Assembly: GCF_003324675.1 (NCBI RefSeq)
Contig: NZ_CP030918.1
Location: 2,310,001-2,342,000 of the forward strand
Source: Paracoccus suum
GTDB taxonomy: Bacteria > Pseudomonadota > Alphaproteobacteria > Rhodobacterales > Rhodobacteraceae
Direction of reading: 5' to 3'
Length of the DNA: 32,000 nt
The translations under genes and the position numbers were made by a program. This document shows, piece after piece, positions 2 to 19,373 of this stretch (its first letter is position 1; the number at the start of each line of letters is the position of its first letter). A model generated the notes under the pieces. That model saw only the letters and a list, made by a program, of their open reading frames with translations, ran no database searches and was not told the origin of the DNA.

Positions 2-1459
2 GCCGCCCTCGACCGCATCCCTGGCATGCATTGCGTGCTGGGCCTGCACGAGACGGTCGTGACCGGCATGGCGGATGGCTATGCCCGCATCGCCGGCAAG
101 CCCGCCTGCACCCTGCTGCATTGCGGCCCGGGCCTTGCGAACGGCATTGCCAACCTGCACAACGCCCGGCGTGGCCGCAGCGGCATCGTCAATATCGTCG
201 GCGACCAAGCGACCTATCACCGCCCGCTCGACGCGCCGCTGACCGCCGATACCGAGGCCCTGGCCCGCGTCGTCTCGGCCTGGGTCCGCACCACGCAGAC
301 GCCGCAGGAAGTCGGGCGCGATACGGCCGAGGCAGTGCGCGCGGCGCGCACCCATCCGGGGCAGGTGGCAACGTTGATCCTGCCGGCCGACGCGTCCTGG
401 GGCGATGGCGGCGAGGTTGCGGAGCCGCTGCCTGCGGCGGCGGCGCCGCCGGTCGACCCGGCCGCCGTCGATGGGGCCGCGCGTCTGCTCCGCGGTAAGG
501 GCGAGGGCCGCACCCTGCTGCTGCTGGCGGCGGACGCCTTGCTGGGCGATGGGCCCTCGCTTGCTTACGGCATCGCCGCCGCCACCGGCGCGGATGTGAT
601 GGCCCAGTTCCTGACGGGAAATCTGCAGCGCGGGCAGGGGCGTTGGCCGCTGGCGCGCGTGCCCTATACCGTCGAGGCCGCGCTCGAGGCCTTGGCGCCA
701 TATGATCGGATCATCCAAGTCGGCGCGACCCCGCCGGTCAGCTTCTTCGGCTACCCCGGCAAGCCCTCGCAGATGTTCCCGCCGCAGGCGGTGCTGCATG
801 TCCTCAGCCGCCCCGACCAAGACGGCATCGCGGCGCTACGTGCGCTCGCGGACGAGGTTGGCGCGACCGCCCTGCCGCCGCCGCAGTCGAACGCGGACAG
901 CGCGCCCCTGCCGACAGGCGCGCCCCATGCGGAAGGGCTCGCGCGGGTTCTGGCAGCGTTGGTGCCAGAGGGTGGGATCATCTGCGAGGAGTCCGTGAGC
1001 TTCGGCGGAGGGACCGGCCCGGCCTACGATGCGGCGGCGCCGCACACCTGGATCTCGCTGACCGGCGGCGCCATCGGTGACGGCTTTCCGCTTGCCACAG
1101 GCGCCGCCATCGGCGCGGGCGGGCAGCGCCGCGTGATCTCGCTCCAGGCGGACGGCTCGGGCCTGTACTCGCTGCAGGCGCTCTGGACCCAGGCGCGCGA
1201 GCGGCTGCCTTGCACGACCATCGTCCTCGCCAATCGGCGCTACCAGATTTTGCTCGGCGAATATGCCGGCGTTGGTGCGAACCCGGGTCCGACCGCGATG
1301 GACATGCTGGACCTCGGCAACCCGGTCATAGACTGGATCGCGCTCGCCCGCGGCTTCGGGGTCGAGGCCGCGCGCACCGACACGTTGGAGGGCCTGGCCG
1401 ACCTGCTGCGCGCCAGCCTGCTGCGGGACGGGCCGTTCCTGATCGAACTGGTGATCTAA
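2..1459 (+). CDS. Thiamine-pyrophosphate-dependent enzyme, acetolactate synthase large subunit / benzoylformate decarboxylase-like (5' end outside window)
   Basis: The frame is open from the window edge, with no stop between position 2 and the listed ATG at 26. N-terminal Pyr-domain-like 'GLHETVVTGMADGYARIAGKP..LHCGPGLANGIANLHNARR'. C-terminal TPP-binding-type motif 'LQADGSGLYSLQALWTQARERLPCTTIVLANRRY'. Confidence 0.8.
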   Translation, partial: AALDRIPGMHCVLGLHETVVTGMADGYARIAGKPACTLLHCGPGLANGIANLHNARRGRSGIVNIVGDQATYHRPLDAPLTADTEALARVVSAWVRTTQTPQEVGRDTAEAVRAARTHPGQVATLILPADASWGDGGEVAEPLPAAAAPPVDPAAVDGAARLLRGKGEGRTLLLLAADALLGDGPSLAYGIAAATGADVMAQFLTGNLQRGQGRWPLARVPYTVEAALEALAPYDRIIQVGATPPVSFFGYPGKPSQMFPPQAVLHVLSRPDQDGIAALRALADEVGATALPPPQSNADSAPLPTGAPHAEGLARVLAALVPEGGIICEESVSFGGGTGPAYDAAAPHTWISLTGGAIGDGFPLATGAAIGAGGQRRVISLQADGSGLYSLQALWTQARERLPCTTIVLANRRYQILLGEYAGVGANPGPTAMDMLDLGNPVIDWIALARGFGVEAARTDTLEGLADLLRASLLRDGPFLIELVI

Positions 1460-5116: not shown

Positions 5117-5850
5117 TGGATCTGGGAATTACCGGGCGCCGCGCGCTTGTGCTGGGCGGCATGAAGGGGCTGGGCGGCGCCGTCGCCGAGGCGCTGCGCG
5201 CCGAGGGGGCGGAGGTGATCGCCGCATCGCGCGGCGCCGAAGGGCCGCATCGCGTGGACCTGGCGGACCGCGCCTCCGTCGACGCGCTCGCTGACACGCT
5301 GCTTGCCGATGGCGGGATGGATATTCTCGTCTGCAACACCGGCGGTCCCGCCCCCGGCGCTGCGGCGAGCGTCGCGTCCGAGGAATGGAGCCGCGCCTTT
5401 GAAGCGATGGCGGCGAGTCTCTTCCACCTGACCTCGCGCCTGTTGCCGCCGATGCGCGAGCGCGGCTGGGGCCGAATTGTGACCATTGTCAGTTCCGGCG
5501 TTGAGCAGCCGATCCCGAACCTTGCCGTCTCGAACGGCGTTCGCGCCGCGGTGGTCGGCTGGTCCAAGACGCTGGCCAGCGAAGTCGCCGCCGACGGGGT
5601 GACGGTGAACTGCGTCCTGCCGGGCCGCATCCATACCGAGCGTGTGGACCAGCTGGACGCTGCGGCGTCCAAACGCACCGGCAAGGAACTGGAGGATGTC
5701 CGCGCAGCCTCGCGCGCAACGATCCCCGCCGGCCGCTACGGCCGTCCCGAGGAGTTTGCGGCGGTGGTCGCGTTCCTCTGCTCGGACCCGGCCAGTTACG
5801 TGACCGGCAGCCGCGTGCGCTGCGACGGCGGAATGATCCGCAGCATCTAG
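5116..5850 (+). CDS. SDR-fold oxidoreductase, non-canonical (BKR-like subgroup lacking the YxxxK motif)
   Basis: Rossmann-like 'RRALVLGGMKGLGGAVAEAL' and 'VNCVLPGRIHTERV' are present. The position expected for YxxxK reads 'AVSNGVRAAVVGWSK'. The ATG at 5116 shares one nucleotide with the upstream TGA (5114-5116). Confidence 0.8.
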   Translation: MDLGITGRRALVLGGMKGLGGAVAEALRAEGAEVIAASRGAEGPHRVDLADRASVDALADTLLADGGMDILVCNTGGPAPGAAASVASEEWSRAFEAMAASLFHLTSRLLPPMRERGWGRIVTIVSSGVEQPIPNLAVSNGVRAAVVGWSKTLASEVAADGVTVNCVLPGRIHTERVDQLDAAASKRTGKELEDVRAASRATIPAGRYGRPEEFAAVVAFLCSDPASYVTGSRVRCDGGMIRSI

Positions 5851-5879
5851 GCTTGGGCGCCGTACTGGAAGACATTTTG

Positions 5880-5906
5880 AAGGCGGCGGGGTGATCCCGC
5901 CGCCTT
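5880..5906. terminator. Perfect 11-bp GC hairpin between convergent genes (candidate bidirectional terminator)
   Basis: AAGGCGGCGGG (5880-5890), loop gtgat, then CCCGCCGCCTT (5896-5906). It sits between the SDR stop (5850, +) and the PLP-enzyme stop (5980, -). Confidence 0.6.
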
Positions 5907-5979
5907 TGACTGTCGCGGCGCAGAGGTGATGGTCCACCGCGTTTGATGTGGCGCGAATGCGATCTGCTCTCCGGCCGGC

Positions 5980-6942
5980 TTACTGCTCGAACAGGGATGG
6001 CGTGCCGCCAGTATGCAGAATGCAGGCGGCCTCATCCTTTGGGATCGCGCCGGACCGGACCAGGTTCAGCAGACCGGCAAAGGTCTTGGCCACATAGACC
6101 TGCTCGATCATCAGCGCTTCATTGGCGGCCATGGTCCTCGCGGCAGCAAGCGACGCTTCCGTCACGACGCCGTAGCCGCCGCCCAACTCTCCGGTGTGGA
6201 TCTCGACCCGGTCCATGAGGTCCGTGGGCACAGCTTGGTCCATCAGCGCCGCGGCACCAAGGATGTTTTCGGTCAGCCGCGCCGTCAGTTCGGCAGCATC
6301 ATATTCCACGCTGACCAGATGAAAGCGCCAGTCGCGGTCCAGCAACGCGGCGCCGAGGATCAGGCCGGCCTCGGTCACACCCATCGAGCCAGGCAGGACG
6401 ATATGGCGCAGCCCCGCGCCTTGCTGGAGGTCCTGCGCGGTGAGTTCCTCGGCCGCGCGGACATACCCCAGCGCCCCGACGAAGGGATCGCCAATGAGGT
6501 AGGGTCGCCGGCCAGCTGCGCGCAGCTCCGCCATTGCCTGCTGCGCGAGGGCGCCGCGCTCCTCTTCGCTCACCGGACCCAGGCGACGGATGTCCGCGCC
6601 CAGAAGCTCGGTCAGCATCGCGTTGCCGCGCAGGGGGGCCTCGCTGTCACCGGCATAGAGGACCAGCACCTCGATCCCGAGTTTCGCCCCGGCGGCGGCT
6701 GTCAGGCGGCACTGGTTGGAGGGCAGGGCGCCGGCGACCACCAGCATGTCGCTGCCCTGCGCCTTTGCCTCGCCAATCCAGAACTCTAGGCTGCGCACCT
6801 TGTTGCCGCCGAAGGCGAGCGGCATGCAGTCGTCGCGCTTGACCCAGATGGCGGGGTGCCCGAGGACCTCGCCGATCCGGGACATGCGCTCCAACGGCGT
6901 CGGCGCGCCGACGAGGTCCACCCAAGGAAATGTGTCCAGCAT
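5980..6942 (-). CDS. PLP-dependent ACC deaminase / D-cysteine desulfhydrase-family enzyme
   Basis: 'GAPTPLERMSRIGEVLGHPAIWVKRDDCMPLAFGGNKVRSLEFW' matches the family signature, including the PLP lysine in GGNK. The internal ATG at 6942 (MLDTFPW) lies 4 nt after the upstream permease stop (6947-6949). The listed start at 7044 would overlap that permease. Confidence 0.85.
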   Translation of the reverse strand: MLDTFPWVDLVGAPTPLERMSRIGEVLGHPAIWVKRDDCMPLAFGGNKVRSLEFWIGEAKAQGSDMLVVAGALPSNQCRLTAAAGAKLGIEVLVLYAGDSEAPLRGNAMLTELLGADIRRLGPVSEEERGALAQQAMAELRAAGRRPYLIGDPFVGALGYVRAAEELTAQDLQQGAGLRHIVLPGSMGVTEAGLILGAALLDRDWRFHLVSVEYDAAELTARLTENILGAAALMDQAVPTDLMDRVEIHTGELGGGYGVVTEASLAAARTMAANEALMIEQVYVAKTFAGLLNLVRSGAIPKDEAACILHTGGTPSLFEQ

Positions 6943-6946
6943 GCCG

Positions 6947-7633
6947 TCAGTCGAGGTTGATGGGTTGCGCGCTGCCGAGACGGCGTTCCGCCCAGCGCGC
7001 GAACCTGAGGACGGGGTAGCAGTAAACGAAATAGATCGCAGCAATCAGGCCATAGATGAAAAGCACGTCGCGGGGATGGCGCAGGATCGCGATCTCGCCC
7101 TGTCGGGTCAGATCGGCAATGCCGATGACGGACAGGATCGCGGTGCTCTTGATGATCATGACATAAACGCCGCTCATCGGCGGGACAGTCAGCTTCAAGG
7201 CCTGCGGCAAAAGAATGTACCACAGCCGTTCGATACGGTTCATGCCCAGCGCGGTCGCCGCCTCGGACTGGCCGCGCGGCACCGCGTCGATCGCACCGCG
7301 CACGATCTCTGCCACGTAGCTGGAGGTATAGATGGACAGCGCGACGAGCGCGGCGGTCTGCGAGTTCCAGCTCAGCCACGAGATGTCGGTGTTCGGCAGG
7401 ACGAAATAGAACAGATAAAGCTGCACGAGGAACGGCGTGCCGCGCAGCAGGTGGATGTAGAGGCCGAGGAGCCCGGTCAGCAGGGGCACACGCTGGCTGC
7501 GGATCACGCCGATGACAAAGCCGATAATCGAGCCGGCAATGATGCTGACGAACGAGATCAGCAGTGTCTGCAAGAAGCCCTGCCACAGGAACGGCATCAG
7601 CGACACGGTAATGGACCAGTAACGTTCCAGCAT
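6947..7633 (-). CDS. Polar amino acid ABC transporter permease (His/Glu/Gln/Arg/opine family)
   Basis: It carries several hydrophobic segments. The EAA-loop region 'GQSEAATALGMNRIERLWYILLPQALKLTVPPMSG' is typical of HisM/GlnP-type permeases. Confidence 0.9.
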   Translation of the reverse strand: MLERYWSITVSLMPFLWQGFLQTLLISFVSIIAGSIIGFVIGVIRSQRVPLLTGLLGLYIHLLRGTPFLVQLYLFYFVLPNTDISWLSWNSQTAALVALSIYTSSYVAEIVRGAIDAVPRGQSEAATALGMNRIERLWYILLPQALKLTVPPMSGVYVMIIKSTAILSVIGIADLTRQGEIAILRHPRDVLFIYGLIAAIYFVYCYPVLRFARWAERRLGSAQPINLD

Positions 7634-7636
7634 CCC

Positions 7637-8332
7637 TCAGGCCCCACCATTCCAGGCCGGCCCCGCAAGGCGCCGGCGGACAAAGTGGGAGAGCAGCACC
7701 ATCACGGCATAAATCGCGAGATAGCCTGCGGCGATGGTCAGGAAGCTTTCGTTCGGGCGCACGCGCTCACTGTTCAGAAGGATGCCTGCGCTGGTGAATT
7801 CGAAAACGGTGATGATCGACAGCAAGGATGTGTCCTTGATCAGGACGGCGGTCTGGCCGATCAGCGGCGGCAGGGTGTTGGCAAAGGCCTGAGGCAGCAC
7901 GACATATCGCATCCGTTGGCCGTAGGACATGCCGACCGCCTTGGCGCCCTCGATCTGGCCGCGCGGGACCGAGCCGATGCCGGCGCGGATGATCTCGCCC
8001 ATGTACGGGGACGAGTTCAGCACCAGGGCGGCGATGCCGAAATACATGTCATTCCAGGACTTGGTGACCGGCACCAGCGCGGGCAGGCCGTAGTAGACGA
8101 GGTAGATCTGCACCAGCAGGGGGGTCGAGCGGATGAACTCGACATAGGCCGCGATCGGCCGCGTGATGATCGCCCGGCGCGACAAGAGGGCGATCGCGAT
8201 CAGCGTGCCGAACAGGACAGACAGCACCAGGGCGATGCCGGCAGCCGTCAGCGTGTTCGCCAGACCCTCGGCAAAGCGGTTCAGGTACTGTGCGACGATG
8301 CGGTAATTATAGAATTCGACGATCGGGTTCAT
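7637..8332 (-). CDS. Polar amino acid ABC transporter permease
   Basis: 'VPRGQIEGAKAVGMSYGQRMRYVVLPQAFANTLPPLIGQ' is an EAA loop. Its stop lies 3 nt before the next permease start. Confidence 0.9.
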   Translation of the reverse strand: MNPIVEFYNYRIVAQYLNRFAEGLANTLTAAGIALVLSVLFGTLIAIALLSRRAIITRPIAAYVEFIRSTPLLVQIYLVYYGLPALVPVTKSWNDMYFGIAALVLNSSPYMGEIIRAGIGSVPRGQIEGAKAVGMSYGQRMRYVVLPQAFANTLPPLIGQTAVLIKDTSLLSIITVFEFTSAGILLNSERVRPNESFLTIAAGYLAIYAVMVLLSHFVRRRLAGPAWNGGA

Positions 8333-8383
8333 GCTGCCTGCTGGGCTGAGGCGGGCCGGCGCGAGGCCAGCCCGGTCGGGCGC

Positions 8384-9175
8384 TTACTTGTGGTCCTTGG
8401 CCCAGTCGGTGGTTTTCCACCAGTAGTTGATCTTGGCTTCCAGCCGGTTGTCGGCCGTGATCAGCTCGACATAGTTGTCCAGCCAGAGCTTGAGGTGAAA
8501 GGCGTTCGGCTGGACCGCAAAGGCCAGCGGCTCGCGGGTGATGACACCCTCGAGGATCTTGAGGTTGCCGAATTCGTCCACGAAGCTGGTGACGTTGCCG
8601 AGGTCCGAGACCATCCCGTCAAGACGGCCCGACGACAGCGCCTGCGCGGTCGCGGCGGTGCCGCCCGCGAACTCTTTAAGCGTGGCCTCGGGCATGTATT
8701 TCTTGATCGCCTCGCCATACGAGCTGGCCTGCGTCGCGCCGAGGGTCAGCCCGGACTTGTTCAGGTCCTGCCATTTCGTCGCCGGCGAATCCTTCGGCGC
8801 GACGGCAACCGTCTCCTGGTAGAACATCGGGCGCGAGAACAGCAGCTGCGCCGCGCGCTGCGGGGTCGGGGTCATGTCGGCGGCGATCATGTCCACCTTG
8901 CCCGACAGCAGTGCCGGGATGAGGCCCTTCCAGTCGTAGTCCTGGACCACCAGCTTGACGCCCAGATCGTCGGCCATCATCTGCGCCAGCTCGACCGCAA
9001 GGCCGGTCCGGGCGCCGTTCTTGTCGACGAAGCTGACGGGCGGGCCCTGGGTCTGGACCGCGATCCGCAACTCGCCCCGGCCGAGGATATCGTCCATCTC
9101 GTCGGCCTGCGCGGCGCTGACCGTGGTCATGCAGGCCGCGGCAAGCGCCATTACGCTCTTAAGAAATCGTCTCAT
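8384..9175 (-). CDS. Periplasmic substrate-binding protein, family 3 (polar amino acid type)
   Basis: Signal peptide 'MRRFLKSVMALAAACMTTVSAAQA'. 'LRIAVQTQGPPVSFVDKNG', 'GKVDMIAADMTPTPQR' and the length of about 260 aa are typical of this family. Confidence 0.9.
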   Translation of the reverse strand: MRRFLKSVMALAAACMTTVSAAQADEMDDILGRGELRIAVQTQGPPVSFVDKNGARTGLAVELAQMMADDLGVKLVVQDYDWKGLIPALLSGKVDMIAADMTPTPQRAAQLLFSRPMFYQETVAVAPKDSPATKWQDLNKSGLTLGATQASSYGEAIKKYMPEATLKEFAGGTAATAQALSSGRLDGMVSDLGNVTSFVDEFGNLKILEGVITREPLAFAVQPNAFHLKLWLDNYVELITADNRLEAKINYWWKTTDWAKDHK

Positions 9176-9220
9176 CTGGTTCGCCCCCTTGTTGTGATCG
9201 CGTCGTCGTCGCCGGCGGCG

Positions 9221-9972
<752 letters not shown>

Positions 9973-9976
<4 letters not shown>

Positions 9977-10827
9977 GCGGCAATTCCGTGGTCGGTGGAA
10001 AATCGGCCCGAAAAGGCGATTGCGACGGGTCCGGTGAGGGTCAGGCTGTCATCCTCGTGGACCTCGACGGTGAGGTTGCCGCCCGGCATCTCGACCACCA
10101 CGCGGCGGGCGGTGATCAGCCCGCGACGGCGTGCAGCCAGCACCGCGGCGCAGGCGCCGCTGCCGCAGGCTTGAGTCAGGATGCCCGGCCGTTCCCAGAC
10201 CACGGCGCGCAGGCGGTCATCAGTCACGACTTGCGCAATGCCGATGTTGGCGCCTTCCGGCAGGGCGGGGTTGGCGGCGAGGGCAGGGGCCCAGCGCCGC
10301 ACGTCCACCGCGTCCCGGTCGGGGACGAAGCAGACCAGATGCGGGTTACCGAGGTTCAGTGCCACCGGGTGGGACAGCGGGCCGGATTCCATGTCCAGCC
10401 CGCCGGTGTCCGCCGGCTGCGACAGGGGGATGGCTGCCCAGTCCCAGCGCGGCGCACCGAGGCGCAGCGCCACATCCCCGCCCGCAGCGCGGCGGGCCGC
10501 GATCAGTCCCCCCAGCGTCTCCAGCCGGACCTTGTCGAAGCCTTCCTCAAGCAACAGCCAGCAGACGCAGCGAGTGGCATTCAGGCAGGTCTCGGCCTCG
10601 GTCCCGTCGACATTATAGATTCGCATTCTGGCATCGGCGGTAGGCGCGCTCGGCGGCTCGATTACCAGCAACTGGTCGCCACCCACACCGCGATGCCGAT
10701 CGCAAATCGCCCGGATCGTGTCGGGGTCGGGACGAAACGCATGGCTGCGCCCGTCGACGATGACAAAATCGTTTCCGAGGCCGTGCATTTTGAGGAAGTC
10801 GCGGCAAGGTGCCGAATTTTCAGGCAA
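9973..10827 (-). CDS. dapF: Diaminopimelate epimerase
   Basis: '[15 protein letters not shown]', the first catalytic Cys context 'NATRC', 'LGNPHLV', and the second catalytic Cys context '[12 protein letters not shown]'. Its stop overlaps the ATG of the ABC ATPase (9973-9976). The start is uncertain: either TTG at 10827 (GAGAG 6 nt upstream) or ATG at 10788. Confidence 0.88.
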
Positions 10828-11036
10828 ATCAATCTCTCAGGGCACAATTAAGCCAACCGGTCGAAAGCTGGTCCCAGAACTGCGGCCTGTCAAGCGGGTC
10901 AATTCTCGCGGGTGTGGCGGATGGCGAGCAGTCCGGGGCCATTTGCAAGACGGGATCAGTCACCTGGACCGGTTTGTGGGGCGACCCGTCGTGACGACTA
11001 AAGTCGCCCCCGCGAGGGAGGTGCGGTTCTTTCCAC

Positions 11037-11219
11037 GTCGATTTGGCTTCCGGCGAGGCATTGCCGGTGACCGGCAGAGACATTGATCGCACGAAATTTT
11101 TTCCGATTATCGAAATTCAGTTCCGCATGTTGGAATTATGGACGCTTCCCACGAGCGAAAAAATCTGTCGATTTCTGTACGAGCATCGCCCTTTTTTCTT
11201 GCACGACAGCAGAATCGAC
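11037..11219. promoter_or_regulatory. Divergent control region with a repeated GTCGATT(T) motif (candidate operator half-sites) in an AT-enriched core
   Basis: GTCGATTT lies at 11037-11044 and GTCGATTTCTG at 11167-11177. The inverted copy CAGAATCGAC is at 11210-11219, so the two arms flank a T6 tract. CGAAATT occurs twice (about 11091 and 11111). The region lies between dapF (-) and the TRAP operon (+). Confidence 0.3.
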
Positions 11220-11309
11220 GCAGTATCCCCGCGTCGGGGGACAAAATCATAACCACCATGTGGACGCCGGTGCGGCGAGTTGGCCGCAGTCCCGAGGGGG
11301 AGGACAGTG

Positions 11310-13187
11310 ATGCACCACGCGGATGCGCATGCCGAGGCCGAACTGGCTCTCGGCGGGATCGAATCCCTGGCCGAGCCGAAGCGGGCAGAGGCCTGGATGC
11401 GCCCGGTCGAGATTGCGGCCTCTGCTTTGCTGCTGGTGATGATCGTCACCGTGCTGGCCAACGTGTTCTTTCGCTATGTGCTGACCAAGCCGTTGATCTG
11501 GGGCGACGAGGTCGCCTCGATCAGCTTCATCTGGATGGCCATGCTGGGGGCGGCGCTCGCCGTAGACCGGCATGAGCATATGCGGCTGACCGTCTTCCTG
11601 CCGATGTTGCCGGAGAGGCTGGCCCGCGTGGTCGAGGTCGCCGGCAGTGTGCTGGTCTGCGTCCTGCTGCTGCGCTTGCTGCCCGTCGCCGTCGAATACG
11701 CCTACGAGGAATCGTTCGTCACCTCGCCCGCACTGCAATTGCCGATGTCGTGGCGGGCGTCTGCCCTGCCGGCGGGGATCGGGTTGATGGTGGTGCTGAT
11801 GGTGCTGTCGGTCCTGCGGACTCGCGAATGGTCCACCATTATCGGCACGTTGCTGGTCACCGGAGCAGTCGTCGCCGCCCTGTGGGTCGCCAAGCCCGCG
11901 ATCCTGTCGCTGGGCAACTGGAACCTGCCGCTGTTCCTAGGCCTCTTCGCGGGCGCGTTGCTGATCATGGGCGTGCCCATCGCCTTCTGCTTTGCCCTGG
12001 CGACACTCGGCTACCTGACCTTTGCGACCCACGCCCCGGCCTTCGTCATGATGGGCCGCATCGACGAGGGCATGTCCTCGCTGATCCTGCTGTCGGTGCC
12101 GGTGTTTGTGCTGCTGGGCTGCATCCTTGACGCGACCGGCATGGGCCGCGCCATCGTCGGTTTCCTCGCCTCGCTGTTCGGCCATGTGAAGGCCGGGATG
12201 AGCTATGTGCTGCTCGGCTCGATGTTCCTCGTCTCCGGCATTTCCGGCTCGAAAGTGTCGGACATGGCAACTGTCGCGCCGGCCCTGTTCCCCGAGATGC
12301 GGCGCCGTGGCCATTCCGCGCCCGAGATGACCGCGCTGCTGGCGACCGGCGCGGCCATGGCCGACACGGTGCCACCCTCGATCGTGCTGATCGTACTGGG
12401 ATCGGTTGCGGGCGTGTCCATCGCCGGCCTCTTCACCTCGGGCTTTGCCATCGCCATGGTGCTTCTGGTCGTTCTGGCTGTGCTGGCCCGTTGGAAAGCG
12501 CGCGGCGAGCGGATGGAGGGGGTGCAGCGCGCCTCGCTCGGCGTGATCGGCAAGACCGCCCTGATCGCGGCGCCCGCCTTGGTGCTGCCCTTCATGATCC
12601 GCAGTCTGGTCGCCGGCGGCGTTGCCACCGCGACCGAGGTCAGCACCATCGCGACCCTTTATGCCTTCATCATCGGCTCGGTGCTCTACGGCGGCATCCC
12701 GCTGCGCCGCGTCGGCACGATGCTGGTCGAGACCGCCGCCATGTCGGGGGCGATCCTGCTGATTCTCGGCGCCGCGTCGGCCATGGCCTGGGGGCTGACT
12801 CAATCGGGCTTTGCGCGCGATCTGATGGTGCTGGTGACCGGCCTGCCGGGCGGCTGGCTCGTCTTCATGCTCGCCTCGATCGTGATCTTCCTGTTGCTTG
12901 GCTGCGTGCTGGAGGGGTTGCCCGCCATCGTGCTGCTGGCGCCGATCATGTTCCCGATCTCGCGCGGGCTGGGCATTCACGACATCCATTATGCGATGGT
13001 GATCGTCACGGCGATGAACATCGGTCTGATGGCACCACCAATCGGCATTGGCTTTTACATCGCCTGCAAGATCGCCAACGTGCCCGCCGAACAGGTGATG
13101 GCGAAGATCTGGCCTTATCTCGCCGCACTGCTGGTCGGCCTTCTGGTCATCGCCGCCGTGCCCTGGTTCTCGACCGCGCTTTTGTAA
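11310..13187 (+). CDS. TRAP transporter, fused small (DctQ-like) and large (DctM-like) permease
   Basis: The N-terminal ~160 aa carry 4 hydrophobic helices ('IAASALLLVMIVTVLANVFFRYVLTKPLIWGDEV', DctQ-like). A linker helix 'WSTIIGTLLVTGAVVAALWV' follows. A DctM-like body then begins at 'LPLFLGLFAGALLIMGVPIAFCFALATLGYL'. GGAGGA (11298-11303) precedes the ATG at 11310. Confidence 0.9.
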   Translation: MHHADAHAEAELALGGIESLAEPKRAEAWMRPVEIAASALLLVMIVTVLANVFFRYVLTKPLIWGDEVASISFIWMAMLGAALAVDRHEHMRLTVFLPMLPERLARVVEVAGSVLVCVLLLRLLPVAVEYAYEESFVTSPALQLPMSWRASALPAGIGLMVVLMVLSVLRTREWSTIIGTLLVTGAVVAALWVAKPAILSLGNWNLPLFLGLFAGALLIMGVPIAFCFALATLGYLTFATHAPAFVMMGRIDEGMSSLILLSVPVFVLLGCILDATGMGRAIVGFLASLFGHVKAGMSYVLLGSMFLVSGISGSKVSDMATVAPALFPEMRRRGHSAPEMTALLATGAAMADTVPPSIVLIVLGSVAGVSIAGLFTSGFAIAMVLLVVLAVLARWKARGERMEGVQRASLGVIGKTALIAAPALVLPFMIRSLVAGGVATATEVSTIATLYAFIIGSVLYGGIPLRRVGTMLVETAAMSGAILLILGAASAMAWGLTQSGFARDLMVLVTGLPGGWLVFMLASIVIFLLLGCVLEGLPAIVLLAPIMFPISRGLGIHDIHYAMVIVTAMNIGLMAPPIGIGFYIACKIANVPAEQVMAKIWPYLAALLVGLLVIAAVPWFSTALL

Positions 13188-13220: not shown

Positions 13221-14237
13221 ATGACTATCACCCGCCGCAACATCCTGCTGGGCGCCGCCGTCGGCGCGCTCGCAACGCCATTCATCCGGGTCCGCCCGGC
13301 CATGGCGGCCGAGTTCAGCTACAAGGTCGCCAACAACCAGCCGCTGGACCATCCCAGCAACATCCGCCTGGCCGAGGCGCAAAAGGCGATCCTGGAGGGG
13401 ACCGACGGCCGCTTTGACCTGCAGATCTTCCCGTCGAACCAGCTGGGCGCCGATACCGACGTTCTGGGCCAACTGCGCTCGGGCGGGGTCGAGTTCTTCC
13501 AGCTCTCGCCGGTGATCCTGTCGACGCTGGTGCCCAACGCCTCGATCAACGGCGTGGGCTTTGCCTTCCCGGACTACGACACGGTCTGGAAGGCGATGGA
13601 TGGCGATCTGGGCGCCTATGCGCGCGGTCAGATCGAGGCTGGTGGCCTCGTCGTCATGGACAAGATCTGGGACAACGGCTTCCGCCAGATTACCTCGTCG
13701 AAAAAGCCGATCACGACGCCGGCCGATCTGGAGGGGTTCAAGATCCGTGTGCCGGTCAGCCCGCTGTGGACCTCGCTTTTCACTGCCTTCGGCTCGGCCC
13801 CGGCATCGATCAACTTCGCCGAGGTTTATACCGCTCTGCAGACCGGGATCGTCGACGGGCAGGAAAACCCGCTGGCGATCATGAAGGTCGCGAAGCTGTG
13901 GGAGGTGCAGAAATATTGCTCGCTGACCAACCACATGTGGGACGGCTTCTGGATGCTCGGCAACCGCCGCGCCTGGCAGGCCCTACCCGAAGACGTGCAG
14001 AAGGTCGTCGCCGACAACTTCAACGCCGCGGCGGTCAAGCAGCGGGCCGACATCGCCGAGATGAACAAGACCCTCAAGACCGACCTCGAGGGCAACGGCT
14101 TTGTCTTCAACGACGTCGATCCCAAGGCGTTCGAGGACAAGCTGCGCGAGGCCGGGTTCTACGCGGAATGGAAGAAAACCTTTGGCGACGAGGCCTGGGC
14201 CATTCTGGAAACGGCCATTGGACGCAAGCTGGCCTGA
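13221..14237 (+). CDS. TRAP transporter substrate-binding protein (DctP family)
   Basis: Tat/Sec-like leader 'MTITRRNILLGAAVGALATPFIRVRPAMA'. DctP-type motifs 'NQLGADTDVLGQLRSGGVEF', 'DNGFRQITS', 'PADLEGFKIRVP' and 'YTALQTGIVDGQENPL' are present. A strong SD GGAGGAGGAGGA lies upstream. Confidence 0.9.
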   Translation: MTITRRNILLGAAVGALATPFIRVRPAMAAEFSYKVANNQPLDHPSNIRLAEAQKAILEGTDGRFDLQIFPSNQLGADTDVLGQLRSGGVEFFQLSPVILSTLVPNASINGVGFAFPDYDTVWKAMDGDLGAYARGQIEAGGLVVMDKIWDNGFRQITSSKKPITTPADLEGFKIRVPVSPLWTSLFTAFGSAPASINFAEVYTALQTGIVDGQENPLAIMKVAKLWEVQKYCSLTNHMWDGFWMLGNRRAWQALPEDVQKVVADNFNAAAVKQRADIAEMNKTLKTDLEGNGFVFNDVDPKAFEDKLREAGFYAEWKKTFGDEAWAILETAIGRKLA

Positions 14238-15037
14238 TGCGCGACGCCGTCGCCCCTGCCCATGCGGACACTGGAGGAACGCAGGCGGTGGCGCGTGCGC
14301 TGTCGCTGCTGTCGCTGGTCGGGCGGGGCGGGGCGCAAGGACTGGGGCTGGCGCAGCTTGCGGCAGCCTCGGGTCTTGCGCGGCCCACGGCGCGGCGGCT
14401 GCTGCTGGCGCTGGGCGCGGCGCGCATGGTCGAGCAGGACCGCGCGACGCGCCGCTATCATCTGGGCGCCGAGACCTATCTGCTGGCCGGTTTCGCGGCA
14501 GAGCGCCACGGCATCCTGCACCATGCCCGCGAGGGCATGGTCAGGCTGGCGCAAGAGACGGGCGATACGGTGCTGCTGACCGTGCCGCAGGATGACCACA
14601 CCCTGTGCCTGGAACGGATCGAGGGCGATTTTCCGGTCCGCACCCATGCCCTGATGCGTGGCGACCGCAAACCTGCAGGCCTCGGGGCCGGTGCCTTGGC
14701 GATCCTCGCCGCCCTGCCAGCGGCGGAGGCGGAGGCGCTGCTGACCCGGGCGGCGCCGCAGATCGGCGATCTGATGCCGGCTGTGGTCGCGGATTTGGAG
14801 CAGGCCCGCGCCGACGGTTACGCCCTCAATCCCGGACATGTCATTGCCGGGTCCTGGGGCCTCGGGGTGGTCATTTCCTGGCCGGACGGGCGCCCGGCGG
14901 GGGCGCTGTCCATCGCCGCCATCGAAAACCGCATGACGCCAGCGCGCCAGGTCGATCTGGTCGCCGGCCTGCATCGCGAGGCCGCAGTTATCGCGGCGCG
15001 CCTTTCCGCGCTGGGCACCGAAAGGAACATCCCTTGA
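14237..15037 (+). CDS. IclR-family transcriptional regulator
   Basis: 'AVARALSLLSLVGRGGAQGLGLAQLAAASGLARPTARRLLLALGAARMVEQD' is a winged HTH, followed by an IclR effector domain ('GDTVLLTV..LCLERIEG', 'GAGALAIL'). The ATG at 14237 shares one nucleotide with the dctP TGA (14235-14237). The listed 423-aa ORF is an upstream extension across dctP. Confidence 0.85.
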   Translation: MRDAVAPAHADTGGTQAVARALSLLSLVGRGGAQGLGLAQLAAASGLARPTARRLLLALGAARMVEQDRATRRYHLGAETYLLAGFAAERHGILHHAREGMVRLAQETGDTVLLTVPQDDHTLCLERIEGDFPVRTHALMRGDRKPAGLGAGALAILAALPAAEAEALLTRAAPQIGDLMPAVVADLEQARADGYALNPGHVIAGSWGLGVVISWPDGRPAGALSIAAIENRMTPARQVDLVAGLHREAAVIAARLSALGTERNIP

Positions 15038-16203
15038 CCGAACCCCTGATCGTCGGCTGGGCGCATACGAAGTTCGGCAAGGCCGAGGCGCCCGATACGA
15101 TGGCCCTGATGGCCGAGGTCGCGCTGCCGGCGCTGGACCACGCCGGGGTGCCGCCCGAGGCGGTCGATGGCATCTTTACCGGCGTCTACAACAACGGCTT
15201 TCAGCGCCAGGATTTTCAGGGCGCGCTCGTCGCCATGGGCGCGCCGGAACTGGCGGGCATGCCCTTCATGCGCACCGAAAACGCCTGTGCCACCGGCTCG
15301 GCGGCCCTCTATGCGGCAGCGGATTTCATCGCCTCGGGCCGCGGCAGGATCGCCCTGGTGATCGGCGCGGAAAAGATGACCGCGCTGCCCATTACCGATG
15401 TCGGGGGCGTGTTGCTGACCGCCAGCTATGTCGCCGAGGAAGGGGACACGCCCGGCGGGTTTGCCGGCGTCTTCGGCCGCATCACGGACGCCTATTTCCA
15501 GCGGAACGGCGACAGGTCCGAGGAACTGGCGATGATTGCCGCCAAAAACCACGGCAACGGCGTCAACAACCCTTATGCGCATATGCAAAAGGCGCTGGAT
15601 GTGGCGTTCTGCAACACACCGTCCGACAAGAACCCGCTGGTGGCCGGTCCGCTGCGGCGCACGGATTGCTCGTTGGTCTCGGACGGCGCAGCGGCCATCG
15701 TGCTGGCGGCGTCCGAGGTGGCTGAAGGTCTGGCCCGAGCGATCCGTTTTCGCGCCCGCGCGCAGGCCGGGGACATTCTGGCTCTGTCGCGCCGGGACCC
15801 GACCGAATTTGCCGGCGCGCACCGCGCATGGCGATCGGCGCTGGACCAGGCGGGGCTGGCGATCACCGACCTGTCGCTGGTGGAAACCCATGACTGCTTC
15901 ACCACCGCCGAGATGATCGAATACGAGGCGATGGGGCTCGCTCCGCGCGGGCAGGGTTGGCGCGTGATCCGAGAGGGGACGACCCGCATGGGCGGCGCGC
16001 TGCCGGTGAACCCCTCGGGCGGGCTGAAATCGCGCGGCCACCCGATCGGCGCGACAGGTGTCTCGCAGCACGTCATGGCTGCGATGCAGTTGATGGACGA
16101 GGCTGGGGCCATGCAGGTTCGCGGCGCGAACTTGGCCGGAGTCTTCAACATGGGCGGCACGGCCGTTGCCAATTACTGCTCGATCCTGGAGCGCGCGCGA
16201 TGA
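15034..16203 (+). CDS. SCP2/SCPx-type thiolase-like protein
   Basis: Nucleophile context 'TENACATGSAALY', the SCP2-thiolase fingerprint 'ETHDCF', and 'GHPIGATGV'. No Cys is present in the C-terminal 'FNMGGTAVAN'. The proposed start is TTG at 15034, overlapping the iclR TGA (15035-15037), with AAAGGA 8 nt upstream. The first in-frame ATG would remove the conserved N-terminus. Confidence 0.82.
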   Translation: MTEPLIVGWAHTKFGKAEAPDTMALMAEVALPALDHAGVPPEAVDGIFTGVYNNGFQRQDFQGALVAMGAPELAGMPFMRTENACATGSAALYAAADFIASGRGRIALVIGAEKMTALPITDVGGVLLTASYVAEEGDTPGGFAGVFGRITDAYFQRNGDRSEELAMIAAKNHGNGVNNPYAHMQKALDVAFCNTPSDKNPLVAGPLRRTDCSLVSDGAAAIVLAASEVAEGLARAIRFRARAQAGDILALSRRDPTEFAGAHRAWRSALDQAGLAITDLSLVETHDCFTTAEMIEYEAMGLAPRGQGWRVIREGTTRMGGALPVNPSGGLKSRGHPIGATGVSQHVMAAMQLMDEAGAMQVRGANLAGVFNMGGTAVANYCSILERAR

Positions 16204-17777
16204 CGGACCCCTCAGGCGGCGTTGCCCCTGTCTCGACCCGCGTGATGAATCTTGCGACCTTCCTCGCGCAGGCTGCCCGGCGCGACCCGGACGGGATTGC
16301 CCTTGTGATGGGCGATACGCGCTGGACCTGGGCCGAGTGGAACGCCCGCGCCGATGCGCTGGCCGATGCACTGCAGACGCGGTTCAACCTGCAAAAGGGC
16401 GACCGGGTGCTGTGCCAGTCGCAGAACTGCATGGAGATGATGCAGGCCATGTTCGCCGTCTGGCGCGCCGGCGGGGTCTGGGTGCCCGCCAACTTCCGCC
16501 AGACACCGGAGGAGGTGGCCTATCTCGCCGAGGCCTCGGGCGCGTCGCTGATGTTCTGTAACGCCGCCTTTCCGGCCCATGCGGCGGCCTGCGATCTGCC
16601 GCAGATCGCCATCGGGGCTGCCGATTTCGGCCCCGACATTGCCGCCATCACTGCCGAGCATATGGGCAAGCGACCGCCGGCCGCAGCGGTTGGCCGCGAC
16701 GATCCCTGCTGGTTCTTCTTCACTTCGGGCACCACCGGGCGCCCCAAGGCGAGCGTTCTGACCCATGGCCAGATGGCCTTTGTGGTGACCAATCACCTTG
16801 CCGACCTGATGCCGGGGCTGACCGGCGATGATGCCTCACTGGTGGTCGCGCCACTGTCGCACGGCGCGGGGGTGCATCAGCTGACGCAGGTGGCGCGCGG
16901 GGTAAAGACGATCCTGCTGCCGACCGAGCGCTTTGACGTGGCGCAGGTCTGGGATCTGGTCGCGCAGTGGCGGGTGTCGACCATGTTCACCGTGCCGACG
17001 ATCCTGAAACTGCTGGTGGAACATCCATCGAGCGCGGCGGCCGACACCTCGTCCCTGCGCTATGTCGTCTATGCCGGCGCGCCGATGTACCGCGTGGACC
17101 AGCAAAGGGCGCTGGAGACGCTCGGCCCCGTGCTGGTCCAGTATTTCGGGCTGGGCGAGGTCACGGGCAACATCACCGTCCTGCCCGCGCATCTGCATCA
17201 GGCCGAGGACGGGCCCACCGCCCGCATCGGCACCTGCGGCCATGCGCGGACCGGGATCGAGGTCCAGATCCAGGATGACAATGGCGACGAGGTCGCGCCG
17301 GGCGAGACAGGAGAGATCTGCTGCATCGGCCCGGCCGTCTTTGCCGGCTACTACCAGAACCCCGAGGCCAATGCGAAATCCTTTCGGAACGGCTGGTTCC
17401 GCACGGGCGATCTTGGCCACATGGACGAGCAGGGCTTTTTCTACATCACCGGTCGGCAGTCGGACATGTTCATCTCGGGCGGCTCGAACGTCTATCCACG
17501 CGAGATCGAGGAAAAAATCCTGACCCACCCGGCGATCAACGAGGTCGCGGTCGTCGGCGTGCCGGACCCCCTGTGGGGAGAGATAGGCTGGGCGGTTTGC
17601 GTCGCGAACGCCCCCGTGGCCGAGGATGACCTGGCGGCGTTCCTCGACGGCAAGCTGTCGCGCTACAAGATGCCCAAGCGGTTCCTGTTCTGGGATGCGC
17701 TGCCCAAGTCAGCCTATGGCAAGATCACCAAGAAGATGATCCGCGAAGAGCTGGAAGCCCGCGGCATGCTCGCATGA
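16200..17777 (+). CDS. AMP-forming acyl-CoA synthetase/ligase (ANL superfamily)
   Basis: 'FFFTSGTTGRPKAS' (AMP-binding core), 'GEICCIGP', 'FRTGDLGHMDEQGFFYITGRQSDMFISGGSNVYPREIE', and the C-terminal lysine context 'PKSAYGKITKK'. An ATGA start/stop overlap with the thiolase lies at 16200-16203. Confidence 0.9.
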   Translation: MTDPSGGVAPVSTRVMNLATFLAQAARRDPDGIALVMGDTRWTWAEWNARADALADALQTRFNLQKGDRVLCQSQNCMEMMQAMFAVWRAGGVWVPANFRQTPEEVAYLAEASGASLMFCNAAFPAHAAACDLPQIAIGAADFGPDIAAITAEHMGKRPPAAAVGRDDPCWFFFTSGTTGRPKASVLTHGQMAFVVTNHLADLMPGLTGDDASLVVAPLSHGAGVHQLTQVARGVKTILLPTERFDVAQVWDLVAQWRVSTMFTVPTILKLLVEHPSSAAADTSSLRYVVYAGAPMYRVDQQRALETLGPVLVQYFGLGEVTGNITVLPAHLHQAEDGPTARIGTCGHARTGIEVQIQDDNGDEVAPGETGEICCIGPAVFAGYYQNPEANAKSFRNGWFRTGDLGHMDEQGFFYITGRQSDMFISGGSNVYPREIEEKILTHPAINEVAVVGVPDPLWGEIGWAVCVANAPVAEDDLAAFLDGKLSRYKMPKRFLFWDALPKSAYGKITKKMIREELEARGMLA

Positions 17778-18601
17778 GCCTGCGAATGATCCATCCCGGC
17801 CCGCGCGCGGCCGAGCGCACGGTGGCCGTGCCGGCCGACCTGCGCCGCATTGCGGGGGTTTTGCCGGCCGGGCGCAGCGTGATGGAGGCAGTCGGCGATC
17901 TGTTTGCGGCGAAGGGTTGCAAGGGCGGCGTGGTGTGGCTGGACGGGGCGGTCTGCGATCCGCTGCGCTTTGTGCTGCCGGCGCCATCGACGGATGGCCT
18001 GCACGCGGCATGGTATTCGGACACCCATGCCCCGGACGGCCCCGTCCAGATCGGGCGGGCCACCGCAACCGTCGGCTGGAAGGATGGCGCGCCGTTCCTG
18101 CACTGCCATGGCACATGGGCGGGTACCATGGGCCACCTTTTGCCCTTCGACAGCATTCTGGCCGCCGATGCGCCTGTCGCCGGCATCGGCGCGCCTGATG
18201 CGTGGTTCGAGTCGCTGCCCGACGTGGAAACCGCCTTTACGCTATTCACGCCGCAAGGGAGCGGTATCGGCACTGGCCTGCTGGCTCGCATCCTTCCTGG
18301 CGAGGACGTTCTCACTGCCATCGAGACCCTCTGCGCTGGACACGGCATCACCGATGCGCGGCTGTACGGGGTCGGCAGCATTGATCACATCCGCTTTGTC
18401 GACGGCAGCCGCACGGACTGCCACGCCACGGAACTGCATCTGGTTGGTGCCACCCTCAGGGCGGGCGAGGCGCATGTGCCGATCGAGGTCGTGGACATCG
18501 ACGGCAAGATCATGCGCGGCGTGCTGGAGCGCGGGGTTAACCCGGTCGGCGTGACGCTGGAATTGATAGTCGAGACAGAAGGGGTGCGCGATGACGCATG
18601 A
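17774..18601 (+). CDS. Tandem PPC (DUF296)-domain protein, function unknown
   Basis: There are two PPC-like halves. Half 1 is 'VLPAGRSVMEAVGDLFAAKGCKGGVVWLDGAV...GWKDGAPFLHCHGTW'. Half 2 is 'RILPGEDVLTAIETLCAGHGITDARLYGVGSIDHIRF...LRAGEAHVPIEVVDIDGKIMRGVLERG'. An ATGA overlap with the ligase lies at 17774-17777. Confidence 0.65.
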   Translation: MSLRMIHPGPRAAERTVAVPADLRRIAGVLPAGRSVMEAVGDLFAAKGCKGGVVWLDGAVCDPLRFVLPAPSTDGLHAAWYSDTHAPDGPVQIGRATATVGWKDGAPFLHCHGTWAGTMGHLLPFDSILAADAPVAGIGAPDAWFESLPDVETAFTLFTPQGSGIGTGLLARILPGEDVLTAIETLCAGHGITDARLYGVGSIDHIRFVDGSRTDCHATELHLVGATLRAGEAHVPIEVVDIDGKIMRGVLERGVNPVGVTLELIVETEGVRDDA

Positions 18602-19373
18602 CGCCAAGGTTGCCGTCGTAACCGGGGGATGCCGCGGCATCGGCCTCGCCGCGACACAGATTTTCCTCGAGCAGGGCTGGCGGGTCGCAGTCGTGGACCG
18701 CGACACGGACGAACTACATGCCGTGTGTGACCCGATGGAGAATGTCCTGCCGATCGAGGCAGACATTTCCGAGCCACAAAGCGTCGATGGCCTGATCCGA
18801 ACGGTCGTCAGTCAGTTCGGCGGCGTCGATGCACTGGTCAACAACGCGGGCGTCGCGCTGTTCTCGCGCGCGGACCAGACCAGCTTCGAGGCCTGGCGCG
18901 AGGTCATGGCGACCAACCTCGACGGCGTGTTCCTGTGTACCCAGGCGGCGGTGCCGGAGCTGGCGAAAACACGCGGCGCGATCGTAAATATCGCCTCGAT
19001 CTCGGGCCTGCGCGCCTCGACGCTGCGGGTCGCCTATGGCACCTCGAAGGCCGCCGTCATTCATCTGACCAAGCAATTCGCAGCCGAACTGGGCGAGCAA
19101 GGTATTCGCGTCAACTGCGTCGCCCCCGGCCCGGTCAGGACCAAACTGGCCATGGCGGTGCATGCGCCGGAAATCATCAGCGCCTATTACGACGCCATCC
19201 CGCTGAACCGCTATGGCGAGGCACGCGAGATCGCCGAGGCGATCGTGTTCCTATGCTCGGACAAGGCCAGCTTCGTCACCGGGCAGACGCTGGCCGTCGA
19301 CGGCGGCTTTGACGCAACCGGCGTCGGCCTGCCGGCCCTGCGGCGAGGGGACGGGACGGTGCGCGAGATCTGA
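18591..19373 (+). CDS. Classical SDR-family oxidoreductase
   Basis: 'VAVVTGGCRGIGLA' (TGxxxGxG), 'NNAGV', 'SISG...VAYGTSKAAV' (S/YxxxK) and 'VNCVAPGPVRT'. The start overlaps the upstream stop by 11 nt. Confidence 0.9.
   Translation: MTHDAKVAVVTGGCRGIGLAATQIFLEQGWRVAVVDRDTDELHAVCDPMENVLPIEADISEPQSVDGLIRTVVSQFGGVDALVNNAGVALFSRADQTSFEAWREVMATNLDGVFLCTQAAVPELAKTRGAIVNIASISGLRASTLRVAYGTSKAAVIHLTKQFAAELGEQGIRVNCVAPGPVRTKLAMAVHAPEIISAYYDAIPLNRYGEAREIAEAIVFLCSDKASFVTGQTLAVDGGFDATGVGLPALRRGDGTVREI

Follow-up and report, generated by a model that had tools for sequence, protein, structure and literature searches.

A two-domain PPC/DUF296 protein as a candidate metal-dependent lyase of a conserved alphaproteobacterial catabolic operon

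A stretch of 32,000 nucleotides from Paracoccus suum (contig NZ_CP030918.1, positions 2,310,001 to 2,342,000; hereafter the window) carries a catabolic operon that includes the gene for a 275-residue protein, here called PPC2, composed of two PPC/DUF296 domains. Our tentative reading is that PPC2 serves as a catalytic subunit of this conserved alphaproteobacterial operon and not as a structural helper of the thiolase encoded two genes upstream. It may, we suggest with a little more caution, be a metal-dependent lyase, probably a decarboxylase, acting on an α-hydroxy-β-oxo intermediate supplied by a short-chain dehydrogenase/reductase (SDR), by an acyl-CoA ligase, or by both. A catalytic role is favored because PPC2 adjoins the ligase gene in 63 and the SDR gene in 60 of 76 related loci and because its open reading frame (ORF) overlaps both neighbors in the window, an arrangement that agrees with the placement given in the original prediction from the sequence alone.

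Domains, conserved residues and split forms of PPC2

The gene and its parts are located as follows.

17774 to 18601, plus strand: PPC2 ORF, 275 residues
17774 to 18244, plus strand: N-terminal PPC/DUF296 domain, residues 1 to about 157 (PF03479 on residues 26 to 121)
18245 to 18601, plus strand: C-terminal PPC/DUF296 domain, residues about 158 to 275 (PF03479), the degenerate half
18101 to 18103, 18107 to 18109 and 18134 to 18136, plus strand: histidine triad of the N-domain, H110, H112 and H121
18221 to 18232, plus strand: D150-x-E152-T153 motif of the N-domain
18431 to 18433 and 18560 to 18562, plus strand: residues kept in the C-domain, E220 and the E263 of T261-x-E263

That PPC2 consists of two PPC/DUF296 domains had been proposed from the sequence and is borne out by both Pfam and the predicted fold. 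The whole protein matches PF03479 (PPC/DUF296, currently named 'PCC'; gathering cut-off 25 bits) in two stretches, with E = 1.4e-15 and 58.1 bits. Scanned alone, the C-half matches with E = 5e-9 and 36.9 bits, and the N-half, over residues 26 to 121, with E = 4e-5 and 24.3 bits, marginally under the cut-off. PF03479 is the sole family listed in a Pfam scan of PPC2 at E ≤ 1, and no NCBIfam model matches. An alternative start, the ATG at 17786, gives the 271-residue product found in the protein collection.

The AlphaFold2 model, built from a 46-sequence alignment (pLDDT 96, pTM 0.92), contains two β–α–β-rich modules with the α/β fold of AF0104 and PH0802. Its best Foldseek matches in the PDB are all single-domain PPC proteins (2h6l, 2dt4, 3hwu, 3htn, 2nmu, 2p6y and 2hx0), with probability 1.0 over about 146 columns, the length of one domain, and target-normalized TM scores of at most 0.76. 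In a profile search of the PDB the C-domain aligns to VCA0587 (2p6y), 2hx0 and 2nmu. The closest homologues are Paracoccus proteins with 82–83% identity. The family comprises 386 clusters at 50% identity (E ≤ 1e-3); among the best 150 of these representatives, from which lengths were taken, 123 of 149 have 255–330 residues, and the shorter ones align to part of the query. No Rosetta-stone fusion of PPC2 to another enzyme occurs among those best 150, since even the longest, at 346 residues, is too short for an extra enzyme domain.

The original prediction had also described PPC2 as internally duplicated. Two PF03479 domains are indeed present, but the halves are highly diverged. BLASTP of one half against the other yields nothing meaningful, and hhalign finds only a 39-column local match (P = 3e-4) at the shared β–α start, for which reasons the halves appear to represent an ancient pairing and not a recent internal duplication. 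The matched segments, LPAGRSVMEAV and LPGEDVLTAI, are the same LP.G...A(I/V) starts that had been noticed in both halves.

None of the three N-domain histidines H110, H112 and H121 varies in the 46-sequence alignment. Across 124 full-length representatives, which stand for clusters at 50% identity and reach down to about 31% identity with the query, H110 and H112 are conserved in 100% and H121 in 99%, as are G101 and G120 in 100%; S82, D150, E152, T153, E220 and E263 are conserved in 92–96% (E220 and E263 in 95%). The triad is spaced H-x-H-x8-H in PPC2, with 8–17 residues before the last histidine across the family. In the profile search of the PDB it aligns with the HxH..H of PH0802, AF0104 and 3hwu, and D150-x-E152-T153 aligns with the 'DEQT' of AF0104, whose PDB entry (2h6l) is titled 'metal-containing protein AF0104'. 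The equivalent three histidines of LmiA, a DUF296 protein of enterohemorrhagic Escherichia coli (EHEC), have been proposed as a Zn site. Neither the alignment nor the profile search reveals an HxH or a triad in the C-domain. Of the late histidine-containing strands that had been noticed in each half, the first includes FLHCHGTW with the HxH of the triad; the second half has no triad.

The triad and the acidic residues conserved with it are what marks a metal site or a catalytic site, and not what a passive scaffold would show. We infer that the N-domain His-x-His...His is a putative divalent-metal site and that the N-terminal domain is the putative catalytic half.

In four lineages (Roseomonas, Variovorax, Microvirga-type and Xanthobacter) the two PPC halves are separate genes with overlapping frames.

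Roseomonas mucosa p1 (L090), 9811 to 10750: split pair of 184 and 130 residues, annotated as two coding sequences
Variovorax (L093), 5193 to 6138: split pair of 184 and 132 residues
Microvirga-type (L063), 7229 to 8165: split pair; L070 and L074 are arranged likewise
Xanthobacter (L073), 10925 to 11876: split pair

Overall, the N-type product has about 184 residues and retains HxH...H and D-x-E-T, and the C-type product has about 130–153 residues and retains T-x-E. The split pairs form an orthologous group of their own, in which the C genes are 67–76% identical across classes. Split pair and fused PPC gene stand side by side in the Microvirga-type loci, where they belong to one operon, and in Xanthobacter. 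The overlap of separate N and C genes in all four lineages shows the two modules to be mutually obligate partners, and Paracoccus PPC2 to be a fusion of two distinct PPC/DUF296 subunits. Separate N and C genes also suggest a heteromeric arrangement instead of a homotrimer.

Gene linkage and operon layout

The neighborhood of PPC2 was scored in 76 loci with enough flanking sequence, drawn from 80 loci (one genome per species) and three plasmid loci. Partners were counted within 10 kb of PPC2.

Ligase: present in 74 of 76, adjoining PPC2 in 63
TRAP transporter (tripartite ATP-independent periplasmic): present in 74–75 of 76, adjoining in 0–1
SDR: present in 72 of 76, adjoining in 60
IclR-family regulator: present in 70 of 76, adjoining in none
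Thiolase: present in 68 of 76, the least constant partner, adjoining in none

The cluster is found, for example, in P. denitrificans PD1222 (PDEN_RS23975-24005) and in Sinorhizobium meliloti. Six full clusters contain TRAP, ligase, SDR and PPC2 without the thiolase; the gene order in Chelatococcus and in locus L077, both lacking a thiolase, is TRAP, SDR, IclR, ligase, SDR, PPC2. In L084 the order is ligase, PPC2, SDR, and a gene for a CitE-like lyase follows 0.5 kb further downstream. L085 has, in place of the TRAP system, a permease of the KdgT type, a regulator of the PucR type and a medium-chain dehydrogenase/reductase similar to threonine dehydrogenase. Conversely, thiolase–ligase pairs of Rhodococcus (L091) and Cupriavidus (L092), 60% identical, are accompanied by no PPC gene detectable by tblastn at E ≤ 1e-3.

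In the Microvirga-type loci a module of TRAP, SDR, an enol-lactonase-like α/β-hydrolase and PPC2 faces a divergently oriented unit of IclR, ligase and SDR. The hydrolase, similar to 3-oxoadipate enol-lactonase, lies between the SDR and the fused PPC gene (L069, 8890 to 9966; L063, 9047 to 9928). These clusters may handle the substrate in the form of a lactone. The module mirrors a logic of lactonase, dehydrogenase and decarboxylase.

A gene of the γ-carbonic-anhydrase (γ-CA)/LbH family, with hexapeptide repeats, is present in both PPC-free thiolase–ligase clusters (L091, 9882 to 10412; L092, 3623 to 4159). It also occurs together with PPC genes in a Microvirga-type locus (L063, 6687 to 7229) and likewise in L070 and L074. 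That the γ-CA-like protein simply takes the place of PPC by non-orthologous displacement was considered and rejected, given that both are present in these three loci. The recurrence of the gene hints that the pathway includes a step involving CO2 or a thioesterase.

In the window the operon runs from the TRAP transporter (DctQM, DctP) through IclR, an SCP2-type thiolase, the CoA ligase and PPC2 to the SDR. Its genes other than PPC2 are these.

11280 to 13187, plus strand: fused TRAP membrane subunit DctQ-DctM, assigned from its ORF and the position of its orthologues; start codon uncertain
13221 to 14237, plus strand: TRAP solute-binding protein, DctP family, phmmer match to 4oan_A
14237 to 15037, plus strand: IclR-family regulator, ATG at 14237, orthologues named IclR
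15034 to 16203, plus strand: SCP2-type thiolase (NCBIfam PRK07516), TTG start; NF005704, 627 bits (cut-off 412)
16200 to 17777, plus strand: acyl-CoA synthetase (NCBIfam PRK07470 equivalog); NF005676, 922 bits (cut-off 774)
18591 to 19373, plus strand: SDR, Pfam adh_short_C2, E = 3e-67

From DctP to the SDR each gene overlaps the next by 1–11 nt, and a gap of 33 nt separates DctQM from DctP. The IclR start overlaps the DctP stop, the IclR stop overlaps the TTG of the thiolase, and the ATG of the synthetase overlaps the thiolase stop. PPC2 shares the ATGA at 17774–17777 with the stop of the synthetase. The SDR begins with an ATG at 18591, 11 nt before the PPC2 stop and preceded by the ribosome-binding site GAAGGGG; the SDR is coupled translationally to PPC2. 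The position of the IclR gene inside the operon, between transporter and enzyme genes, is unusual for a regulator and is conserved in most related loci. Orthologues of DctQM, named 'TRAP transporter large permease subunit', occupy the corresponding place in P. denitrificans, Chelatococcus and S. meliloti, and 75 of the 76 loci have this subunit.

The thiolase has Pfam domains Thiolase_N and Thiolase_C_1 and the SCP2-type set of motifs (the cysteine of NACATGS, the histidine of GHP and the HDCF loop), from which it appears to be catalytically complete. Its nearest PDB matches are trypanosomatid and zebrafish SCP2-thiolases; enzymes of this type work as standalone dimers. The acyl-CoA synthetase has AMP-binding and AMP-binding_C domains. 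The best NCBIfam matches of the SDR are a BudC-like model (248 bits, under the cut-off of 270) and a glucose 1-dehydrogenase subfamily (238 bits, cut-off 215), and its nearest PDB match is the FabG 4nbu.

The operon is flanked upstream by an ABC ATPase and diaminopimelate epimerase and downstream by an Lrp regulator, an enzyme dependent on pyridoxal phosphate (PLP) and an amino-acid ABC system. Its boundaries were set there because these genes are unrelated to it and differ from the flanks in P. denitrificans. Between 19418 and 24416 the window contains an Lrp/AsnC regulator (minus strand), a PALP-family PLP enzyme, a family-3 solute-binding protein, a DAO-type FAD oxidoreductase and ABC permease-like ORFs. 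An ORF of 840 residues at 6716 to 9238 (plus strand) has no Pfam match and overlaps minus-strand ORFs at 6786–7586, 7637–8332 and 8384–9175; it is probably a shadow ORF of GC-rich DNA and not a gene.

A possible reaction and its rivals

The proposal that PPC2 is a decarboxylase draws on two enzymes, acetolactate decarboxylase (ALDC) and C11orf54, also known as PTD012. C11orf54 is a Zn-dependent decarboxylase of β-keto-L-gulonate, and its H266/H268/H278 triad superimposes on the ALDC triad; it is coupled both functionally and evolutionarily to CRYL1, the dehydrogenase that makes its substrate, and the two are fused in rotifers (PMC12337341). The three-histidine pattern, compared as a sequence pattern only, is HxH-x8-H in PPC2 and HxH-x(9-10)-H in the Zn decarboxylases. 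With the PPC2 model, Foldseek returned weak matches to acetolactate decarboxylases (4bt3, probability 0.92, E = 0.019; 4bt2, 0.91; 5yho, 0.77, E = 0.015) and to PTD012/C11orf54 (1xcr, 0.63, E = 0.011); the profile search of the PDB with PPC2 returned no ALDC or PTD012 chain. In SCOP, one superfamily comprises the AF0104-like (DUF296), the ALDC-like and the PTD012-like families. By this analogy, the two characterized branches of the fold would both be metal-dependent decarboxylases of α-hydroxy-β-keto acids that act downstream of a dehydrogenase, and PPC2 would share with them the triad pattern and the linkage to an SDR.

The transporter offers a hint about the substrate. The DctP of the window matches 4oan_A with a phmmer E of 1.8e-140 over 311 residues (about 68% identity, counted by eye), and second-tier PDB matches reach only E of about 1e-40. 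4OAN is the DctP of Rhodopseudomonas palustris HaA2. According to a review, an EFI study found a cluster of TRAP binding proteins with 2-acetolactate as ligand. An acetolactate-like ligand suggests a small branched α-hydroxy or β-oxo acid as substrate, and nothing more. 2-Acetolactate is the substrate of ALDC.

The R. palustris locus that encodes 4OAN (L088, 10001 to 14616; CP000250) contains only DctP, DctQM and a PRK08162-type acyl-CoA synthetase, which is 31% identical to the ligase of the window. As this locus has no PPC gene, the pairing of TRAP transporter and CoA ligase appears to be older or more general than the association with PPC. Separately, a thiamine-diphosphate enzyme of an acetolactate-synthase-like family is encoded at 26 to 1459 (plus strand) of the window, about 10 kb upstream of the operon, its Pfam N-domain match beginning at profile position 40, and Roseomonas encodes another such enzyme 1.8 kb downstream of its cluster (L090, 12579 to 14120). 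Such neighbors, together with an acetolactate-like ligand, are suggestive; they may be a coincidence and are not conserved in P. denitrificans.

A reaction sequence can be envisaged in which a small hydroxy- or oxo-carboxylate would enter the cell through the TRAP system, the ligase would activate the carboxylate to its CoA thioester, and the SDR would oxidize the hydroxyl group to a ketone. The metal of PPC2 would bind the resulting α-hydroxy-β-oxo acid or carboxy-thioester, and PPC2 would cleave it by way of a metal-stabilized enediolate, with decarboxylation the most probable outcome by analogy with the Zn enzymes ALDC and C11orf54. The C-domain of PPC2, having lost the triad, probably supplies what the fold or the pocket of the active site would otherwise lack. 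Where a thiolase is present, it would finish the carbon chain to acetyl-CoA units.

In its boldest form the proposal would give prokaryotes their first DUF296 enzyme in the fused or split PPC pair, a metal-dependent decarboxylase or lyase of heteromeric type whose substrate would be an α-hydroxy-β-oxo acid or its CoA half-thioester. DUF296 would become a third catalytic branch of the ALDC/C11orf54 superfamily, and Alpha- and Betaproteobacteria would have a new CoA-dependent catabolic route for small acetolactate-like acids. So much at once seems doubtful to us.

Several considerations weigh against a decarboxylase. The literature searched holds no experimental activity for any prokaryotic DUF296 protein. 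The matches to ALDC and C11orf54 have TM scores of only 0.24–0.30 and rmsd values of 9–13 Å, and the Pfam scan at E ≤ 1 showed no match of PPC2 to PF03306 or DUF1907. It is not obvious why a decarboxylase of free β-keto acids would require a CoA ligase and a thiolase. The order of the pathway is a matter of speculation, and several chemistries are equally compatible. The γ-CA-like gene that follows or neighbors the thiolase–ligase pair in PPC-free clusters could indicate a thioesterase role. As to the substrate, the ligand of 4OAN is reportedly only density 'modelled as' (S)-2-acetolactate, and it came from heterologous expression. The 4OAN locus was checked for thiolase, SDR and PPC genes and has none; because it lacks PPC, the ligand of the binding protein need not be the substrate of PPC2.

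The alternative that survives best, though we consider it unlikely, is that PPC2 is a metal-dependent acyl-CoA thioesterase or esterase, which would release a second, probably α-hydroxylated, acyl-CoA product or clear dead-end CoA esters in the manner of PaaY. PaaY, a thioesterase of phenylacetate catabolism with a three-histidine metal site, belongs to the γ-CA/LbH family, a member of which accompanies the Rhodococcus and Cupriavidus thiolase–ligase pairs that lack PPC. The frequent adjacency of PPC2 to the CoA ligase would suit such a role. In the deoxyribonate CoA pathway, too, no enzyme has been identified for the glyceryl-CoA product, and weak esterase activity had been seen with PTD012 before it proved to be a decarboxylase (PMC12337341). 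The three Microvirga-type loci with both kinds of gene, however, indicate that γ-CA-like and PPC proteins are not simple substitutes; both characterized relatives with the triad and the fold are decarboxylases, and no thioesterase has been described for DUF296.

Less likely again is a metal-dependent isomerase or epimerase, in which PPC2 would convert an α-hydroxy-β-oxo acyl intermediate for the thiolase or the SDR by ketol/enediol rearrangement or epimerization at C2. This idea rests on the same conserved putative metal site as the decarboxylase proposal. ALDC, besides decarboxylating, converts (R)- into (S)-acetolactate by way of the same Zn-bound intermediate, and many clusters have two SDRs, which would fit the handling of stereoisomers. 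Clusters without a thiolase nevertheless keep PPC2, and no isomerase is known in the fold family.

The original prediction had proposed that PPC2 takes the place of the small DUF35/OB-fold subunit with which SCP2-type thiolases often work, as a non-catalytic partner or scaffold of the thiolase (or the ligase). Its remark that no DUF35 gene is present is correct, the operon being packed too tightly to leave room for a DUF35-like gene. Co-occurrence with the thiolase in most loci and the head-to-tail ORF overlaps, which suggest co-translation, also favor a partnership, and the PPC domains of plant AHL proteins are known to serve as modules for oligomerization. The comparative evidence nonetheless makes this role improbable, because the thiolase is the least constant partner, missing from 8 of the 76 loci and never adjoining PPC2, and because thiolase–ligase orthologues exist without PPC (L091, L092), so that the genomic pairing is not obligate. 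Moreover, the thiolase carries the full NACATGS, HDCF and GHP set and resembles standalone SCP2-thiolases, and PPC2 has a conserved site patterned like a catalytic metal site; a scaffold would not need a triad conserved in 99–100% of sequences. PPC2 has no DUF35-type Pfam match, and its predicted model consists of two PPC modules with no Zn-ribbon or OB fold. The wording 'accessory catalytic subunit', which the prediction also offered, lies closer to the data.

A regulatory or ligand-sensing role, as a DNA-binding protein or co-regulator like LmiA or the plant AHLs, is the least probable: databases name the protein 'predicted DNA-binding protein with PD1-like motif', LmiA has been reported as a transcriptional activator, and in Xanthobacter and Azorhizobium the gene adjoins Lrp/AsnC regulators without enzymes, but PPC2 is acidic (pI 5.08; family median 5.5), has no AT-hook (no RGRP or GRP motif) and no helix-turn-helix domain in Pfam, and lies between enzyme genes whose ORFs it overlaps in an operon that already has an IclR regulator. 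Because PPC2 is acidic and lacks an AT-hook, the 'PD1-like DNA-binding' label looks like one transferred from plant AHL names.

Whichever chemistry applies, the operon is a testable entry point, with a fixed gene set that includes a transporter, a ligand-bound structure of a close homologue of that transporter, a genetically tractable host in P. denitrificans PD1222 (and S. meliloti besides) and a histidine triad as target for mutation. Were PPC2 a decarboxylase or lyase, a chemistry would be assigned to DUF296, the discovery made with C11orf54 would be extended to bacteria, and a catabolic pathway that is common among rhizobia and roseobacters but carries no annotation would be filled in. Should that reading be wrong, the comparative data still remove the idea of a DUF35 surrogate.

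Comparison with known systems

DUF296/PPC is a large family of prokaryotes and plants that has had several solved structures since 2006 and no known reaction; work on plants regards the domain solely as a module through which AHL transcription factors interact. Our literature search found no biochemical function for a bacterial DUF296 protein and no fused or split two-module form, only the plant AHLs and LmiA. The regulatory role of LmiA is the single functional claim found, in keeping with the earlier statement that prokaryotic members have structures and no established biochemistry. PPC2 has the DUF296 domain in common with LmiA (Z4267) of EHEC and with the PPC domain of plant AHLs, and LmiA also has the three histidines. 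LmiA and the AHLs are described as transcription regulators or chromatin proteins, whereas PPC2 is found among enzyme genes.

Like PPC2, the DUF35 partners of the archaeal thiolase/HMG-CoA synthase complex, BbsA, and the ChsH2-DUF35 that pairs with Ltp2 are small proteins encoded beside a gene of the SCP2/thiolase superfamily in a CoA-dependent pathway. They have an OB fold with an N-terminal Cys4 Zn ribbon; PPC2 has another fold and neither adjoins the thiolase nor depends on it. The deoxyribonate pathway of Klebsiella michiganensis, with its CoA synthetase, β-hydroxyacyl-CoA dehydrogenase, thiolase and transporter, follows the same logic of a short β-oxidation of a hydroxy acid. Unlike the PPC2 operon, its cluster contains major facilitator superfamily transporters, a CoA-transferase and a glycerate kinase; it was set aside as an explanation of the PPC2 operon, its paper mentioning no DUF296 component.

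ALDC/BudA and C11orf54/PTD012 carry an HxH-x(n)-H on a β-hairpin, and PPC2 has a similar pattern with weak but repeated fold similarity (probability 0.6–0.9). Both act on α-hydroxy-β-keto acids and are genetically coupled to a dehydrogenase, which for ALDC is BudC, as PPC2 is coupled to an SDR. In contrast to either, PPC2 belongs to a CoA-dependent operon, and the likeness we draw is mechanistic only, with no claim of membership.

The single-domain PPC proteins (AF0104, 2H6L; PH0802, 2DT4; Reut, 3HWU; VCA0587, 2P6Y; BT_1116, 3HTN) are the nearest comparison. They share the Pfam family and the fold with PPC2 and share with its N-half the HxH...H triad and the C-terminal D/x-E-T strand motif. 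They crystallize as homotrimers, and we know of no reaction for any of those that have been solved. The single-domain proteins have about 140 residues; PPC2 joins two diverged domains and carries the triad in only one of them. PPC2 is, in these terms, a variant form of a known uncharacterized family in a conserved orphan operon.

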